Part shown: positions 37,845 to 47,738 of the stretch, piece after piece
How the letters are laid out: the number at the start of each line of letters is the position of its first letter
How positions within the stretch are numbered: the first letter of the stretch is position 1
Source: a virus
Lineage: Duplodnaviria > Caudoviricetes
Virus record (IMG/VR): IMGVR_UViG_3300023283_000032
Coordinates: 1-47,738 of that record
Direction: 5' to 3' (one strand)
Length of the DNA: 47,738 bases
Notes under the pieces: model-generated
Seen by the model: the letters and a program-made list of their open reading frames with translations, nothing else
What the model was told of the DNA's origin: nothing
Database searches by the model: none
Position numbers and translations under genes: made by a program

Positions 37845-38885
37845 TCACGTTCTCCTCTGCTGTGCCGCGCGGGACAGGCGGCGGCGGGAGGCCTGCGCCC
37901 GGTAGTAGGCGACCATCTGCGCGCTCTGGCCCGTGACCGCCTGGATCTCCGCGTCGGTCGCGCCGGCCTCGGCGAGCTCCACAATCGCCAACTTGCGCAA
38001 CCCGTGCAGGACGTAGCTCTCCGCCCGGCTCCCGAGGCCCGCGCGCCACGTCCGAAACGCCCGCTCGACGGCATCGTAGCCCAGCGGCTCGCGCAGGGTC
38101 TTGGCGACGATGTGCGCGCCGCGCTTCGGCACGCCCGCGAGGAAGTCGCGGAGCGGCTGCGGGCAGTAGACGACGAGCTCCGCGTCGCCCTTCTCGTCCA
38201 CGACCGTCATCCACTCGCCGTCGATCTGATCCCACCGCATGGCGATGGCCGCGCCGGGCCGCTGGCCGCTGTAGCGGATCAGGTTGACCACGATCCGCAC
38301 CGTCTCCGGGGCGGTGTCGGCGGCCGTTACCATCCACTCGGGCCACGGCGCGAACGACCGAGCCGGCTTGTAGCTGCCCAGCCCCTTGGCCGGGTTTTCG
38401 CCCAGCGGCCAATCCAGCTCCGCGCTGGCGTAGCCCCACAGCAGCGAGACCGTCTGCGCATAGCGGGCGGCCTTGCGCGGCGTGTCCGCCATCGTGCCCA
38501 GCGCCGCGCGGACGGCTTGGCGCGTCGTGCGCCGCATGTCCTTGTCGCCGTTCTTTTCCAGGATCGCGTCCATCGGGCGGCGGTAGCTGCGCTTGGTGCT
38601 CTCCGCGAGCCCGCGCTGGACGTTCCGATCGGCTCGCCACGCGCGGATGCACTCGCCCCAGGTGTACGACGCCGGGCGGCGCTGGGCGTCGTGGTCGCCG
38701 CTCTGGGCGCGCCAGTAGAGCCGGTCGAGCTCCTGCGGGTCACCCTTCCAGTCGAGCTTGATCTCGCGCGCCCGGCGCCGTCCGCCTTCCGTCCACGTCA
38801 CCCGGTGGTAGGGCACCCACGCGCCGCGCACCCACCGCCATTGCAGGTGCGGCTTCCGGATGCGCGGTTTCGGGGGTCGTCTCAC
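37845..38885 (-). CDS. int: Tyrosine integrase
   Basis: SGQRPG (R), LHGLRK (HxxR), TGQ, MVAYY (Y). Confidence 0.95.
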   Translation of the reverse strand: MRRPPKPRIRKPHLQWRWVRGAWVPYHRVTWTEGGRRRAREIKLDWKGDPQELDRLYWRAQSGDHDAQRRPASYTWGECIRAWRADRNVQRGLAESTKRSYRRPMDAILEKNGDKDMRRTTRQAVRAALGTMADTPRKAARYAQTVSLLWGYASAELDWPLGENPAKGLGSYKPARSFAPWPEWMVTAADTAPETVRIVVNLIRYSGQRPGAAIAMRWDQIDGEWMTVVDEKGDAELVVYCPQPLRDFLAGVPKRGAHIVAKTLREPLGYDAVERAFRTWRAGLGSRAESYVLHGLRKLAIVELAEAGATDAEIQAVTGQSAQMVAYYRAQASRRRLSRAAQQRRT

Positions 38886-39088
38886 AGCTCGAACTCGTCG
38901 CGTGGCCTGGCGGCGTCGCCGCGCAGAATGGCGTCGAGCTCGTCGACGCGCCAGCGTTCATCCGGCCCGATCCGGGCCGGCGGCGGCAGCGCCCCCTCCG
39001 CGACCAGCCGCCGGAAGCGCTCGACCGACATGTCGAGCAGCTTCGCGGCGGTGCAGTCTCGCACGGCGAGAGGGCGCAGGGAGGTCAC
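38882..39088 (-). CDS. xis: Excisionase-like HTH protein
   Basis: AAKLLDMSVERFRRLVAEGALPPP...RWRVDELD; coupled to int. Confidence 0.8.
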   Translation of the reverse strand: MTSLRPLAVRDCTAAKLLDMSVERFRRLVAEGALPPPARIGPDERWRVDELDAILRGDAARPRDEFEL

Positions 39089-39360
39089 GGGAGATCAGGC
39101 TCCGGCGGCGGTAATGTGGCCAGCCACGCGTTCACCTCCGCTGCCGTAATCGTGCACCAGACTTGTCGTTCGCGCCGGGCGCGGGCCGCGTAGCGCTCCT
39201 CCAGATCACTGCACTGCGCGGCCTCGATGTCGGCGATCAGCTTGGCCTTGGTGCCGGGCGGGTCTCTCAATCCGTCGCCGCAGATTTCCCACCACCACTT
39301 CAGCAGCACGCTCTTACTCTCGCGGCGAAGCGCCGTGAAGGTGAGGGTCGCAGCGCGCAT
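39085..39360 (-). CDS. Hypothetical protein
   Basis: Coupled at both ends. Confidence 0.65.
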   Translation of the reverse strand: MRAATLTFTALRRESKSVLLKWWWEICGDGLRDPPGTKAKLIADIEAAQCSDLEERYAARARRERQVWCTITAAEVNAWLATLPPPEPDLP

Positions 39361-39920
39361 CAGCCGGTTTCCTCCTTCCGCAGGTCGGGCGCGCAGTCCG
39401 GAGTGCGGCTTTCCACCATCGCCGCGGCGCGGTGCACATCAAGATGCCCGAACGCATCGAACGCCCGCGCCAGCGCATCAGCCGCGCCGGCGGGGTCGCG
39501 CAGCACATCCTCGAATCGCAGGATCTTCACGTCGCCCCGGCGGCGGGCCATGGCGAGGCCTCTAGTCCGATCCGCCCGGACGGACGCCACCCAGGCCCGC
39601 CGTTCCCGCCGCGAGAAACCGGGGCCGTGCCCGCCGAGGGACAGCAGCTTGAGCTGGCTGCGCGCCTGCTGCTCGGGGTCGCGGTCCATCCAGACGATGG
39701 GGCCATGATGGACGGCCGGCACGAAGGTTGCAGTCGGGTCGGTCCACTTCAAAACGTGGCCCTCCCGCCGGTAAAGCCACTGCACGTCGGTGTAGGCCGG
39801 CCGCAGGTGACGGTCCTCGTAGGACGGCGGCGGGCCGGCGACAGGAACTCCGCCCGCGTCGAGCATCTGCATGACCATGGTGGTCCCGCAGCGCCCGAGT
39901 CCGGTGACGAAGCCGATCAT
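39360..39920 (-). CDS. Sulfotransferase-family protein
   Basis: 5'-PSB-like VTGLGRCGTT, 3'-PB-like MDRDPEQQARSQ, LRFEDVLRDP. Confidence 0.75.
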   Translation of the reverse strand: MIGFVTGLGRCGTTMVMQMLDAGGVPVAGPPPSYEDRHLRPAYTDVQWLYRREGHVLKWTDPTATFVPAVHHGPIVWMDRDPEQQARSQLKLLSLGGHGPGFSRRERRAWVASVRADRTRGLAMARRRGDVKILRFEDVLRDPAGAADALARAFDAFGHLDVHRAAAMVESRTPDCAPDLRKEETG

Positions 39921-40012
39921 CGCGCGCACTCCCGATAAGCCCTGCCCGAGTAGCGCGGCCAGTCGCGCGCCGCGCCGGCGGCGACCAGTGAGCACGCGAG
40001 GTCGTCGCTCAT
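39917..40012 (-). CDS. 31-aa ORF resembling a thermonuclease C-terminal fragment
   Basis: ATGA coupling at both ends; DLACSLVAAGAARDWPRYS. Confidence 0.45.
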   Translation of the reverse strand: MSDDLACSLVAAGAARDWPRYSGRAYRECAR

Positions 40013-40167
40013 TCCTCCTCAACCTCCGTGACTTCGGCTTCAATCACGCCGTCCCATTTCTCGACCATCTCCTGGCACCGCTCCTCGGCGTGAGCCTCGT
40101 CACGGGCTTTCCAGCCCGTGAACTTGTGCTCCATGGTGAAGCGGACGGTAACGGTGAACTCAGGCAT
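40009..40167 (-). CDS. Small hypothetical protein
   Basis: RBS AAGGAGG. Confidence 0.65.
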   Translation of the reverse strand: MPEFTVTVRFTMEHKFTGWKARDEAHAEERCQEMVEKWDGVIEAEVTEVEEE

Positions 40168-42487: not shown

Positions 42488-42675
42488 TGAATCCTCCTGG
42501 TTTCGTGCTGGTCGTGACATTCAGCGGCAACGCGCCGCCACATTCTGGCGTGGGCCTCGCTGGGAGATCGCGCCGCCAGCCATTCCGCAGCGGCGAACCG
42601 GGCGGCAGGAGTGCTACTGGCGCCGGTAACGATCCCGCTTAGGTAGTGGACGCCGTCAGTCTCAGGGAGTTGCAT
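42484..42675 (-). CDS. Hypothetical protein
   Basis: RBS GGGGAG. Confidence 0.55.
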   Translation of the reverse strand: MQLPETDGVHYLSGIVTGASSTPAARFAAAEWLAARSPSEAHARMWRRVAAECHDQHETRRIQ

Positions 42676-43408
42676 TGGGACTCCCCATAGAAAACGCACG
42701 TTCAACGCGCTGAGAAAATTCTTGTCTCGCAGATCTCCCCGCGGCGGACCACGCGGCGGCCCCCGCGGCGGCCCCCGCGGCGGACCACGCGGCGGCCCTC
42801 GCGGCGGCCCCCGCGGCGGACCACGCGGCGGCCCTCGCGGCGGCCCTCGCGGCGGACCACGCGGCGGACCACGCGGCAGCCTCCGCGGCAGCCTCCGCGG
42901 CGGCCCTCGCGGCGGACCACGCGGCGGACCACGCGGCAGCCTCCGCGGCAGCCTCCGCGGCGGACCACGCGGCAGCCTCCGCGGCAGCCTCCGCGGCAGC
43001 CTCCGTGGCGCTCCACGCAGCGGCCGCCGCGGAGGCCCGCTTTTTCGGTTCGAGATCGATCAGATACTCGCGCACGATATCGGGCGCGTCCCACAAGTGA
43101 GCGACCGACAGAGCCTTATCGGCGGCGAAGCGCCGGCACAGCGCATCGGCGTCAATGGTCGCGAGGATCGTGCGTTCGCGGCTGACGTGCCTGTCGGGGC
43201 GGCTTTCGACGGGCTCGCTACACGAGACGCGGTGCAGCTGTGGGCCCGGGGCGTATATGAGTGCGTCAAAGGGGTGTTCGCTCCAGTGGAAACCGGAGCG
43301 GAACATCTCAATGTCGCCCTTGAAGGTCAGGGTCTCGCCGATAGCCGGGATGGGCGAGCCATCGTGCAGGGTGTCGCCCGTGAAGTGGTAGCCGATGTAT
43401 TCGCCCAT
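42662..43408 (-). CDS. Phage protein with globular N-domain and Ala/Trp tetrapeptide repeats
   Basis: GFHWSEHPFDALIYAPG N-domain; AAWS/AAAE/AARA/AAGA repeats; RBS GGAG before ATG 43408 (43420 also possible). Confidence 0.8.
   Translation of the reverse strand: MGEYIGYHFTGDTLHDGSPIPAIGETLTFKGDIEMFRSGFHWSEHPFDALIYAPGPQLHRVSCSEPVESRPDRHVSRERTILATIDADALCRRFAADKALSVAHLWDAPDIVREYLIDLEPKKRASAAAAAWSATEAAAEAAAEAAAWSAAEAAAEAAAWSAAWSAARAAAEAAAEAAAWSAAWSAARAAARAAAWSAAGAAARAAAWSAAGAAAGAAAWSAAGRSARQEFSQRVERAFSMGSPNATP
42741..43032. repeat. Degenerate 12-bp tandem array (~24 units)
   Basis: Units such as GCGGCGGACCAC, GCGGCAGCCTCC, GCGGCGGCCCTC. Confidence 0.9.
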
Positions 43409-43423
43409 TTCAGTCTCCATCCT

Positions 43424-43529
43424 TGAAAAGGCCGGGGGCAGCGAAGGAGGCCACCGCCCCCGGCCAGTTGCCCGCCCTCACCCGAAACAAAGGGTCGCGC
43501 ACCGGGAGGATTGGCGCGCGCGGGCGGGG
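43424..43529 (-). ncRNA. Candidate structured RNA with anti-SD loops, ending in a terminator hairpin
   Basis: Hairpin loops AAUCCUCCC and GCCUCCUU; final 14-bp stem followed by UUUU. Confidence 0.55.
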
Positions 43530-43530
43530 T

Positions 43531-43869
43531 TTAGTAGTGCGGCACATCCTCGTTCACGATCTTGGTCAGGCACTCGTGCGCCCAGTCTGCGGCGTTCCAA
43601 GCATCCTCGCGGTCCTGCTCCGTATCGTTCGGATTACAGGCGAACTCGTCCATCTGCCGAAGAGCCGTGACCAGGTTGCCGAGGTTACTGTCGCCTTCGG
43701 TCTCTTCCAGCAGGCGGAGCAGCAGGCGGACCTTCACTTCACGGCGATACCATCCGTGGCTGTCGAGCTTGCGTGTCTCAGCGTTGAGGAACTGGTGAGC
43801 CGCGTCGAGAGCGGCGCTGAACTTGTCCACGCGCTCGGCGCGAGCGTCGGCAGGGGTTTGAAGGTTCAT
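43531..43869 (-). CDS. First gene of the left early operon, hypothetical
   Basis: RBS AGGGAG, directly after pL. Confidence 0.75.
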   Translation of the reverse strand: MNLQTPADARAERVDKFSAALDAAHQFLNAETRKLDSHGWYRREVKVRLLLRLLEETEGDSNLGNLVTALRQMDEFACNPNDTEQDREDAWNAADWAHECLTKIVNEDVPHY

Positions 43870-43913
43870 CCGTGTCTCCCTTGCTGGCCCTGGGGCCGGT
43901 GCGTCTGAGGAAG

Positions 43914-43997
43914 ACTATGCCGACAATTTGTCGGCGGCGCAAGGGGTATCCGACAAATTGTTGGATTAACCACGCTCGCCAGCCGACATGCAGTCGG
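43914..43997 (-). promoter_or_regulatory. pL (TTGCGC-N17-CATAGT) with three CCGACA-N3-TGTCGG-type operators
   Basis: Palindromes at 43920-43934 (perfect), 43950-43964 and 43983-43997 (one mismatch each). Confidence 0.8.
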
Positions 43998-44005
43998 TTA
44001 GATTT

Positions 44006-44044
44006 GTGCCAAACTGGCACCGCCTACTGCGAGGCACAGATAAT
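44006..44044 (+). promoter_or_regulatory. Putative promoter of the 57-aa ORF with palindrome GTGCCA-AAC-TGGCAC
   Basis: -10 GATAAT at 44039-44044; perfect palindrome 44006-44020. Confidence 0.5.
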
Positions 44045-44055
44045 GCGAGGTGACC

Positions 44056-44229
44056 ATGAGCATTGCAGACGAGCGCTTAGACGACATGATCCGCATCGCC
44101 GAGGCGACGGGCTACAGCCTGGATGATGTCCTGAAGGCTATCGGCAGAGCCGATCAGACGATCTTCGAGGCGGTTTCCGCCAACCCGTCTCTCCTGCCCC
44201 GATATATCCAGTCAAGGGACAGGCCGTAA
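44056..44229 (+). CDS. 57-aa putative antirepressor (repressor mimic), overlapping the repressor 3' end antisense
   Basis: RBS GAGGTG; MSIADERLDDMIRIAEATGYSLDDVLKAIG...; function is inferred. Confidence 0.6.
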   Translation: MSIADERLDDMIRIAEATGYSLDDVLKAIGRADQTIFEAVSANPSLLPRYIQSRDRP

Positions 44230-44408
44230 GCGTCGCAAAGCTGCTCCGCAGCTTCAACGGTGATTCGCCGCGCGCCACGCTCCCAACTGCCATATTGGTC
44301 TTCGTTGAAGCCGTGGCGTGCGGCGAACTCTGCCTGCGTCAGGTCTGGCGCAAAGGCAAGCCGGACCGAACGCACCCGCGCGCCTATGTCCGCCAACCTC
44401 TTGCTCAT
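44154..44408 (-). CDS. Immunity repressor, XRE HTH only (no S24 peptidase domain)
   Basis: LTQAEFAARHG...YGSWERG.R...LCDAYGLSLDWIYRG; divergent from cro. Confidence 0.85.
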   Translation of the reverse strand: MSKRLADIGARVRSVRLAFAPDLTQAEFAARHGFNEDQYGSWERGARRITVEAAEQLCDAYGLSLDWIYRGRRDGLAETASKIV

Positions 44409-44434
44409 CTCAACCCCACCCTAGCTCTACGTGA

Positions 44435-44508
44435 ATTCTGACGGCCTCGCGCTAGAGGGCCAAGCGCCAAGTTGGCGGCTTGACCTGCCCGACATATTGT
44501 CGGATAGT
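44435..44508. promoter_or_regulatory. Divergent pRM (TTGGCC-N17-CAGAAT, minus) and pR (TTGACC-N17-GATAGT, plus) with operators
   Basis: CCGACATATTGTCGG at 44489-44503 in the pR spacer; CGCCAA-G-TTGGCG at 44465-44477. Confidence 0.75.
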
Positions 44509-44514
44509 CGGGCC

Positions 44515-44745
44515 ATGAACAAAGCTCGCCACATAGCTGACGCGCTCGGGCGCAACGCCATAGCCGACACGCTGAATGTCAGCCCCGATGCCGTGAGCAT
44601 AAGTGTCCGCCGAACGAAGTTCCCGGCGAGCTGGTATCCGGCCATCAGGGATATGTGCAGCGCGAACGGGGCTGAGTGTCCCGAAGACGCCTTCAACTGG
44701 AAAGTCCCTCCGCAACCCGCCTCCGACCACGAGGCCACGCGATGA
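44515..44745 (+). CDS. Cro-like protein
   Basis: IADALGRNAIADTLNVSPDAVS...FPASWY; divergent from the repressor. Confidence 0.8.
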   Translation: MNKARHIADALGRNAIADTLNVSPDAVSISVRRTKFPASWYPAIRDMCSANGAECPEDAFNWKVPPQPASDHEATR

Positions 44746-44984
44746 CTGCCCGGATGCCTCTCGCAGGTCTGCCGCCCGCTGCGTCGCAGGCTGCCAAGAC
44801 CGCCGCCGGTGCGCGAGTCACGGAAACCCGACCCGCCGCCGCGCTGCTCTCCGACCTCGACCGCTGCGACAGCCACGCGGCTCTGCTTGCGCTCAAGGCC
44901 CGGCTGTCGCTCGCCGGCGTGCATTTGAGCCGGGCGGAGGAGGCAGCGCTGCGCGCGGCGGAGCTCAGGATGGAGGGCGCCTGA
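44742..44984 (+). CDS. Hypothetical protein
   Basis: ATGA and TGATG coupling. Confidence 0.6.
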   Translation: MTARMPLAGLPPAASQAAKTAAGARVTETRPAAALLSDLDRCDSHAALLALKARLSLAGVHLSRAEEAALRAAELRMEGA

Positions 44985-46535: not shown

Positions 46536-46870
46536 TCCGCCTCACTCTCACCGCCTTTCTAATCGCCACCCCCGCCACCGCCGACGTGGAGCTGCGCGAG
46601 GTCCACGGCGAGAATCACGTCGCCGAGGTAGTGTTAATAAACCGGGTCGGCGCAAACGGCGGAATTGTGGAGCGTCACGAAATAGTCATTCCCGAGGGCA
46701 TGATCGTCGTCACGGAATACCACACACCGAACGCCAGATGCGTGCCGGCCTGCCCGGACAGGATCGTCATCGACGCCCTGCCGCCCGGCATTGTCGCCGA
46801 GGTGCCGGAGCTTACCGTGCCGGAACAGAAAACCGGCGTGATCCGTCTCTTTAGATTTGCGGGGTCGTGA
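46532..46870 (+). CDS. Small exported protein
   Basis: Signal MIRLTLTAFLIATPATA; CVPAC motif. Confidence 0.7.
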   Translation: MIRLTLTAFLIATPATADVELREVHGENHVAEVVLINRVGANGGIVERHEIVIPEGMIVVTEYHTPNARCVPACPDRIVIDALPPGIVAEVPELTVPEQKTGVIRLFRFAGS

Positions 46871-47738
46871 TGGAGCCTGTCGTTCTGAAATGCGGCGACT
46901 TCCAATTGAAGATTGGCTCGGATGTCGCTTGGTTCGCGCTGAGCCAAGACGGAAAGAAGCTTTCGCAATTCCACCGCGAGCCGCTGGCCGAGTGCCTCGC
47001 CTACATGCGCCGTCGGCTTTCGGACCCGGCGACCAAGCCGGAGCGGGTTCCGGAAATTGAAGCGATCATCAAGGCGATAAAGGCGAGGATGGAGGGGATC
47101 TGAAATGCACGTATCCATTTCGATAAGGTTGCTCGGCAATCGGGCAGAGGCGATCGCGGACTATGAGCAGGATGGCCAGCCCTGCCAGCTTTGCGAGGAG
47201 GGCGCCACCGGCGCTGGCGCGCTGTCGCGCCTCATGCGCCGGGCGGTCGCCGCCGGCCTTAAAGGGGCAACCTACGAGGCGCCGTACGGGTTGCAGGGAA
47301 CCATCGCCCCCCCGGCGGCGCGCCCAAGGCCGCGCAAGCCCGTGCCACCCGATCCTCTGAGCGAATGGGGCCCGTATCATGGATGATGGCATGACCCTCC
47401 ACGACCGCATCAAGCGCCTGCTCCGGCAGGCCAACGCGCTGACCCTGACGGAAATCGCGATGGAAGTCGGCGCCCATAGAGTCGATACAGTGCAGGCGCT
47501 GCACGAATTGCAGGACGCCGACGAGGTGATTTTGCGGGACGGGTTCTGCAGGATTGCGGAGAAGGCGCGCGAGAAATGAGGGAAGGAATCTCGGACAACT
47601 GGGTGAAGCTGTCATGCTTCAACTGCGAAAAAGTGAGGTATTATCCTGCAAGTGCGGCGCGCCGGTATGAAGAAAAGAAATAACGTTGCAATAAGTGCCG
47701 GCATACCCTGAAGGGCCGGACGCTCAAGAAGCTCAACC
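46675..47738 (+). repeat. Terminal direct repeat, copy B (includes second copies of ORFs 46867..47103, 47105..47386, 47379..47579)
   Basis: Matches 1..1064. Confidence 0.95.

Follow-up and report, generated by a model that had tools for sequence, protein, structure and literature searches.

The module AimX-AimC-AimL of the extended arbitrium phages of Bacillus is the described system closest in design to the locus reported here, and heterodimer formation has been shown for it (bioRxiv 10.1101/2025.11.23.689978). According to this preprint, the overlap could be recoded without significant effect, while the response was lost when the start codon was mutated to a stop. LexA-controlled antirepressors are described for Gifsy (GfoA/GftA), 186 (Tum) and N15 (AntC), where a small protein inactivates a non-cleavable repressor; the Gifsy genes are placed outside the immunity region (PMC3121763). 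SinI of Bacillus subtilis is described as a small helical protein without a DNA-binding helix, which mimics part of the repressor SinR and forms a heterodimer with it (10.1101/2025.11.23.689978). Small non-proteolytic antirepressors under SOS-independent control are reported from the TF-smORF modules of Vibrio and Aeromonas phages (PMC10432266).

Here we describe a 57-aa open reading frame (ORF) that overlaps a phage repressor gene antisense. It is a conserved protein-coding gene under purifying selection outside the overlap and, judged from its sequence and setting, it probably encodes an antirepressor, which would act on the non-cleavable repressor and so induce this phage family. A comparison with the published description of AimX-AimC shows a common layout: a short non-cleavable HTH repressor (80–140 aa there) with a divergent cro-like gene, a small convergent ORF (29–80 aa in AimX) antisense over the repressor 3' end, an upstream LexA site that some members have and many lack, and a helical protein proposed to block repressor oligomerisation. 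However, the aimR-aimP pair lies upstream in those phages while no AimR-like match is found upstream of the 57-aa ORF, so the locus is not a member of the AimX-AimC system. The overlap is 76 nt here and 30 nt in phi106, and the relatives of the 57-aa ORF are found in Alphaproteobacteria. In AimC, oligomerisation is the task of a separate C-terminal domain, which AimX covers, whereas the repressor studied here has only a short sixth helix. Compared by description, AimX proteins are highly divergent, whereas the 57-aa family is conserved and bears a weak likeness to helices 4–5 of the HTH domain itself. SinI differs in the same respect, as the part that it mimics is a separate C-terminal oligomerisation domain; its gene is also chromosomal and is not known to overlap sinR. 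In contrast to Tum, the Gifsy proteins and AntC, a LexA box at the promoter is found here only in relatives. The TF-smORF modules, as far as they are described, offer a possible model for copies without LexA box such as the present one, but those smORFs lie beside a dedicated activator gene and away from cI, and no such activator gene was identified here.

The window analysed (47,738 bases) comprises an entire virus record. It contains genes for terminase, portal, capsid, tail sheath, baseplate, endolysin, integrase and an excisionase-like protein; the phage is temperate and contractile-tailed. Positions 1–1064 and 46675–47738 form a 1064-base end repeat with 96% ungapped identity, likely an assembly overlap or a terminal redundancy; the record itself is classed as having no end repeats. 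The immunity region is lambda-like, with leftward RecE/RecT-like genes, three operator-like sites, the small ORF, the repressor, a fourth site and the cro-like gene in this order (Table 1). On the 5' side of the 57-aa ORF, the operators are followed by a leftward 112-aa gene, a 252-aa DUF7666 protein and the RecE/RecT-like genes. The DUF7666 protein (42662–43420, minus strand) has a long Ala/Trp-Ser-Ala repeat, and a sulfotransferase-family gene is found in the early left operon (39360–40043, minus strand). The cro-like ATG lies 7 bases past the -10 element of the rightward promoter (44480–44515), which suggests a leaderless mRNA. Most close relatives have the same layout with TCCACA-N3-TGTGGA-like sites, and the named relatives of the locus are mostly Paracoccaceae and Roseobacteraceae. 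An Rfam search gave a single weak match, below threshold and outside the small gene.

Table 1. Features of the immunity region and the integration genes, in window coordinates.
Feature	Position	Strand	Remark
Integrase	37845..38885	-	marks the phage as temperate
Excisionase-like gene	38885–39088		beside integrase
Candidate leftward early promoter TTGCGC-17-CATAGT	43914..43942	-	by eye, 7/12 consensus bases; under promoter-scan threshold
Operator-like palindrome CCGACA-N3-TGTCGG	43920..43934	.	inside spacer of candidate leftward promoter
Operator-like site, one mismatch	43950..43964	.	
Candidate small-gene promoter TCGCCA-17-TAGATT	43976..44004	+	by eye, 8/12; under promoter-scan threshold
Operator-like site, one mismatch	43983..43997	.	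inside spacer of the small gene's candidate promoter
Palindrome GTGCCA-N3-TGGCAC	44006..44020	.	only perfect copy in window; about where relatives have the LexA box
GATAAT and GAGGTG	44039–44044 and 44047–44052	+	alternative: inferred leaderless start at GTG 44050
57-aa small gene, likely antirepressor	44056..44229	+	predicted helices 3–18, 22–29, 34–42, 44–52
Dual-coding overlap, 76 nt	44154..44229	.	third codon positions of both genes coincide
XRE repressor, 84 aa, HTH and short sixth helix	44154..44408	-	HTH_31, HTH_3 matches
Rare ATA codon, repressor Ile68	44205..44207	-	ATC/ATT here is a stop in the small gene
Rightward promoter TTGACC-17-GATAGT	44480..44508	+	promoter scan
Operator-like palindrome	44489..44503	.	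inside rightward promoter spacer
Cro-like gene, 76 aa	44515..44745	+	weak HTH matches; divergent from repressor

The initial annotation had described the repressor as lacking an S24 autocleavage domain, which is confirmed by our family searches: only HTH families are matched, and no peptidase family. Short repressor tails are common to the whole family, with medians of 15 and 23 aa past the anchor tyrosine. As such a repressor is unable to cleave itself, another way out is needed. The recognition-helix region of the window repressor reads EDQYGSW and goes with CCGACA-N3-TGTCGG sites, while most relatives have xTQYNNW and TCCACA-N3-TGTGGA; from these motifs it appears to be a matched change of specificity. 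A scan for viral loci with the window repressor as single protein found none.

The 57-aa ORF starting at ATG 44056, convergent on the repressor gene and overlapping its last 76 nt, was located correctly in the initial annotation. An in-frame GTG at 44050 would extend it to 59 aa. The proposed ribosome binding site GAGGTG and -10 element GATAAT are both present, but by their spacing they would not easily serve together: a transcript starting 6–8 nt past GATAAT would lose most of GAGGTG. Because the third codon positions of the two genes coincide in the overlap, conservation of the last 25 residues of the ORF proves nothing, and only the non-overlap part was tested. A repressor-relative alignment yielded 165 loci (48, 42 and 75), or 166 with the window, of which 165 have a repressor profile match; 162 were anchored (3 dropped) and formed 128 clusters at 90% DNA identity. 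A model of ORF columns 1–32, seeded by four sequences that had been found without using the repressor, matched 50 of the 128 dereplicated loci in the expected frame and none of 630 control-frame reads. We distinguish a close subfamily of 48 loci (score of at least 15 bits), a second subfamily of 21 loci, whose motif was picked after seeing the data, and 59 ORF-less loci, a class that holds a few degraded or truncated cases. An ORF of the family thus runs antisense to the repressor in 69 of the 128 dereplicated loci, mainly in Rhodobacterales. Profiles of the two subfamilies align at 98.7% probability, partly via the overlap.

Selection was examined on the non-overlap part of 40 in-register loci of the close subfamily, taken as 20 disjoint pairs. 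The pN/pS is 0.27, and the corrected ratio of 0.12 is rough because silent sites are near saturation. Differences at codon positions 1, 2 and 3 number 140, 83 and 302 (302/525 at third positions, 20 pairs). The ORF frame has no stop in any of the 40 loci, while each of the other five frames has stops in 21–39 of them. In 32 of the 48 close relatives the position of the start codon is unchanged, and an SD-like word accompanies it in 29 of these. Conservation beside short XRE repressors, left as a check by the initial annotation, is therefore seen at the protein level, outside the overlap and in many relatives. These results bear on the explanation that the ORF is a shadow, an artefact of repressor conservation or of read-through extension on the repressor strand. 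The coinciding third positions conserve the last 25 residues for free, and the read-through frame of the repressor strand is open in 19/46 loci of one subfamily and 14/18 of the other, with a pN/pS of 0.40. However, the 32 conserved residues are not part of the overlap. Stops interrupt the mirror frame in 22 of 40 loci and the ORF frame in none, and in the window the mirror frame closes after 13 codons. The start codon, the SD-like words and the LexA boxes all point towards the ORF strand. For the subfamily of the window the shadow explanation is largely refuted, and we regard it as extremely improbable.

The overlap leaves its mark on repressor codon usage. The isoleucine before Tyr69 is encoded by ATA in 35/47 loci of the close subfamily and in all 21 of the second, against 26/133 and 13/70 for the other repressor isoleucines; in 12 window genes, ATA makes up 7 of 225 isoleucine codons. 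ATC or ATT is used at this codon in 46 of 59 ORF-less loci. Overall, the deciding repressor codon leaves the overlap open in 63/68 ORF-bearing loci versus 13/59 others. A quick tree places the ORF-bearing loci mostly in two clades, so the codon counts are not independent and show maintenance, not many independent origins. Five ORF-bearing loci have a stop at the anchor codon yet keep the rest of the ORF; the last 8 residues are thus dispensable.

The coupling to the repressor also holds in searches that start from the ORF. All 24 viral loci found by its N-terminal motif alone overlap such a repressor antisense. Among 401 sampled genomes of the order, 11 have a match, in 12 places that are all beside a repressor, four of them matching via the overlap only. 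A further viral scan gave 19 loci, most on contigs already known, and the two examined overlap a repressor; with the same alignment, five of the 401 genomes were hit; four of these were known, and the fifth does not match the ORF profile. When 1.84 billion representatives were searched by profile, 60 proteins were returned. In 13 of them the N-terminal module is present and the overlap tail is missing, so the module is not tied to the overlap and can be a protein in its own right. Six proteins (P0079, P0080, P0082, P0083, P0087 and P0089) are 137–187 aa long, with the module at the N-terminus and an unrelated C-terminal part, most ending in GGEV. At about 204,700–208,000 of one contig (G198:C283, loci L224/L229), four or five repressor homologues stand in tandem on the same strand, and the N-terminal part of the small ORF is missing there.

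Known members at the same position are gp64 of EBPR podovirus 2 (AEI70959) and WP_317388970 of Sulfitobacter sp. LC.270.F.C4, both annotated as hypothetical. Locus L254 (NZ_CP136687.1) lies on a 46-kb circular molecule filed as a Sulfitobacter plasmid; with its integrase, helicase and terminase genes it resembles an excised prophage. The small ORF is included in its gene table, from which the overlapping repressor is absent. For the window ORF, no family was found in Pfam or PHROGs at E<=1, and NCBIfam gave one irrelevant row with E 0.09. For 46 members the best E was 0.004 in Pfam and 0.013 in PHROGs, and no family was common to more than six of them. None of the window ORFs scanned matched a named antirepressor family. 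The largely open-access literature searched describes no such ORF family. The family is real and so far unnamed, and the overall switch design is already known from AimX-AimC.

The reported LexA box of Alphaproteobacteria is GTTC-N7-GTTC (PMC8565304). Its absence upstream of the window copy had been noted before and holds for the whole window, in which neither GTTC-N7-GTTC nor GAAC-N7-GAAC occurs; no box with up to 2 mismatches is present in 43870–44060. The relatives differ from the window copy. A scan of up to 110 nt upstream of the start, in 46 of the 48 close relatives (two were too short), found a perfect box in 16/46 (shuffle mean 0.15, maximum 2) and a box with up to one mismatch in 26/46 (3.0 in shuffles), versus 1/56 and 4/56 in ORF-less loci. 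Relatives with a box include loci of Phaeobacter, Thioclava and Pacificibacter (L052, L063, L071). Perfect boxes in the second subfamily number 0/20 in one set and 4/25 in another. Most boxes begin 27–45 nt before the start codon, often just 3' of a -35-like word, and are closer to the ORF than the left operators (about -100 to -200). The suggestion of an SOS-independent trigger is thus not supported as a general claim, with LexA boxes in a third to half of the close relatives, but may hold for the window copy. Non-cleavable repressor and LexA boxes in relatives together point to an SOS-controlled antirepressor.

For the window copy other inputs can be considered. A repressor operator lies in the spacer of the small gene's candidate promoter, the same as in both early promoters (by eye); if this promoter is right, the two regulators, repressor and antirepressor, would switch each other off. 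The palindrome GTGCCA-N3-TGGCAC is a possible site of another regulator. Perfect palindromes of at least 6 bp occur in 9 of 22 close relatives without LexA box near the start, the window included (2.3 expected). Two loci without LexA box (L014 and L111) have the palindrome TGACGC-N6-GCGTCA in common, about 55–65 nt upstream of the ORF, possibly the site of a regulator common to both. The word TGGCAC at 44015 was compared by eye with the sigma-54 consensus and rejected, its spacing being one base too long.

The ORF occupies the interval between the repressor and the left operator, a frequent place for morons, and this also fits an SOS- or stress-induced accessory protein, either a co-repressor or stabiliser comparable to 434 Hex, or a factor for exclusion or directed at the host, as is found at the lambda rex position. 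Hex overlaps a repressor gene and, as reported, can favour lysogeny (PMC3564112). But Hex guards a cleavable repressor, whereas the window repressor has nothing to cleave; the constant antisense coupling to one repressor family is not moron-like, and LexA control suits induction more than stabilisation. An accessory role is therefore rather unlikely.

How the protein would act on the repressor was approached through its likeness to repressor helices 4–5, which the initial annotation had seen by eye. BLASTP of the ORF against the repressor does not recover this alignment, while profiles give the same register (hhalign probability 8%, P 0.004). In six of six profile pairings ORF residues 13–26 fall on helices 4–5 in one register. 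Column shuffles, a lenient control for amphipathic helices, score as high in 0–1 of 60 cases in the six pairings, and in a separate shuffle test in 3/150 for the subfamily of the window and 0/150 in a second comparison. The invariant Leu22-Asp23 of the ORF faces repressor Leu65 (98%)-Asp66 (100%), followed by Gly-Arg in both. The match to the cognate repressor is no better than to ORF-less ones (16.5 vs 20.5), and the window ORF matches no HTH family. Mimicry thus gains from the constant register and the invariant Leu-Asp pair, and loses from low scores and the lack of cognate preference.

The structural models agree with helical proteins. The ORF is predicted with four helices (mean pLDDT 84) and the repressor with six (94). 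The repressor model resembles ClgR, C.AhdI, C.BclI and C.Esp1396I, all with E above 0.001. Proteins of the ClgR/C.AhdI type dimerise via C-terminal helices, and by analogy with known XRE structures helices 4–5 would be the dimer surface of this repressor as well. The ORF model was not clearly matched in fold searches, neither in Foldseek (best E 6.2) nor in VIA-align (best Z 5.4, MLLE domains); the XRE domain of HigA2 is at rank 15 in VIA-align (Z 3.8, rmsd 2.6, 47 aligned), where it ties with unrelated small helical domains. A PDB sequence search with the ORF found one designed repeat protein only, and the ESM Atlas gave no usable match.

The protein could instead bind by a surface of its own, for example to the recognition or the sixth helix, and the likeness to helices 4–5 would then be a chance property of short amphipathic helices. 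The antirepressor claim is common to both explanations and the mode alone differs. Binding by an own surface agrees with the low profile scores, with the cognate repressor not being preferred, and with the sequence diversity described for known small antirepressors (10.1101/2025.11.23.689978, PMC10432266). It does not account for the recurrence of the register in two divergent ORF subfamilies, with the Leu-Asp pairs facing each other and Gly-Arg next. We consider it a tentative alternative, well short of an even chance. Given that the protein is an antirepressor, mimicry has about even odds by the profile evidence; overall, displacement of the second subunit by ORF helices 1–2 through helix mimicry is possible, though doubts prevail.

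The convergent transcript itself might act, by antisense pairing or by polymerase collision, with the peptide as by-product or minor helper. The 76-nt overlap is in line with this, and a terminator-like site on the plus strand was not found in 43400–44800, so an RNA could cross the whole repressor gene. But purifying selection acts on the protein outside the overlap, proteins with the module and without overlap tail exist, and in AimX-AimC, as far as described, the effects of recoding and of the start mutation point to the protein. This explanation is very unlikely. The initial annotation had proposed a double-acting switch of peptide and antisense mRNA; the antisense half is weakened by the AimX-AimC result, and a meaningful antisense-RNA effect is unlikely here. 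The active agent is likely the protein.

The best combined explanation, a conserved antisense-overlapping gene whose product is an antirepressor acting by displacement through helices 1–2, is reasonably likely on the sequence evidence. In lysogeny, the promoter of the small gene would be kept off, by host LexA in many relatives, and in the window copy by the repressor's own operator and possibly also by a factor at the second palindrome. Our prediction is that the small helical protein, when produced, binds the repressor; its helices 1–2 would most likely replace helices 4–5 of the repressor's second subunit. As a result, the operators of the left and right promoters would be vacated by the repressor, and the lytic genes would be switched on. 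We infer expression, binding, dimer displacement and induction alike.

A bolder form of this mechanism is doubtful: that the antirepressor is a copy of repressor helices 4–5 read antisense, which poisons dimers, has a swappable input and reached the AimX-AimC design independently. If true, the LexA box, other palindromes or, in the window phage, the repressor's own operator would be exchangeable inputs, and the window phage would have an SOS-independent double-negative switch.

Prophages of Rhodobacterales are many and little studied; 173 were predicted in 79 genomes, according to one survey (PMC8224337). In the literature searched, induction of Rhodobacterales prophages with short non-cleavable repressors is not described. 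The 57-aa family is a candidate inducer family that is easily missed in annotation, because only one of two overlapping genes may be called. It appears from our comparison that this layout of the switch has arisen in two distant phyla and that LexA and other inputs are exchangeable as its trigger.
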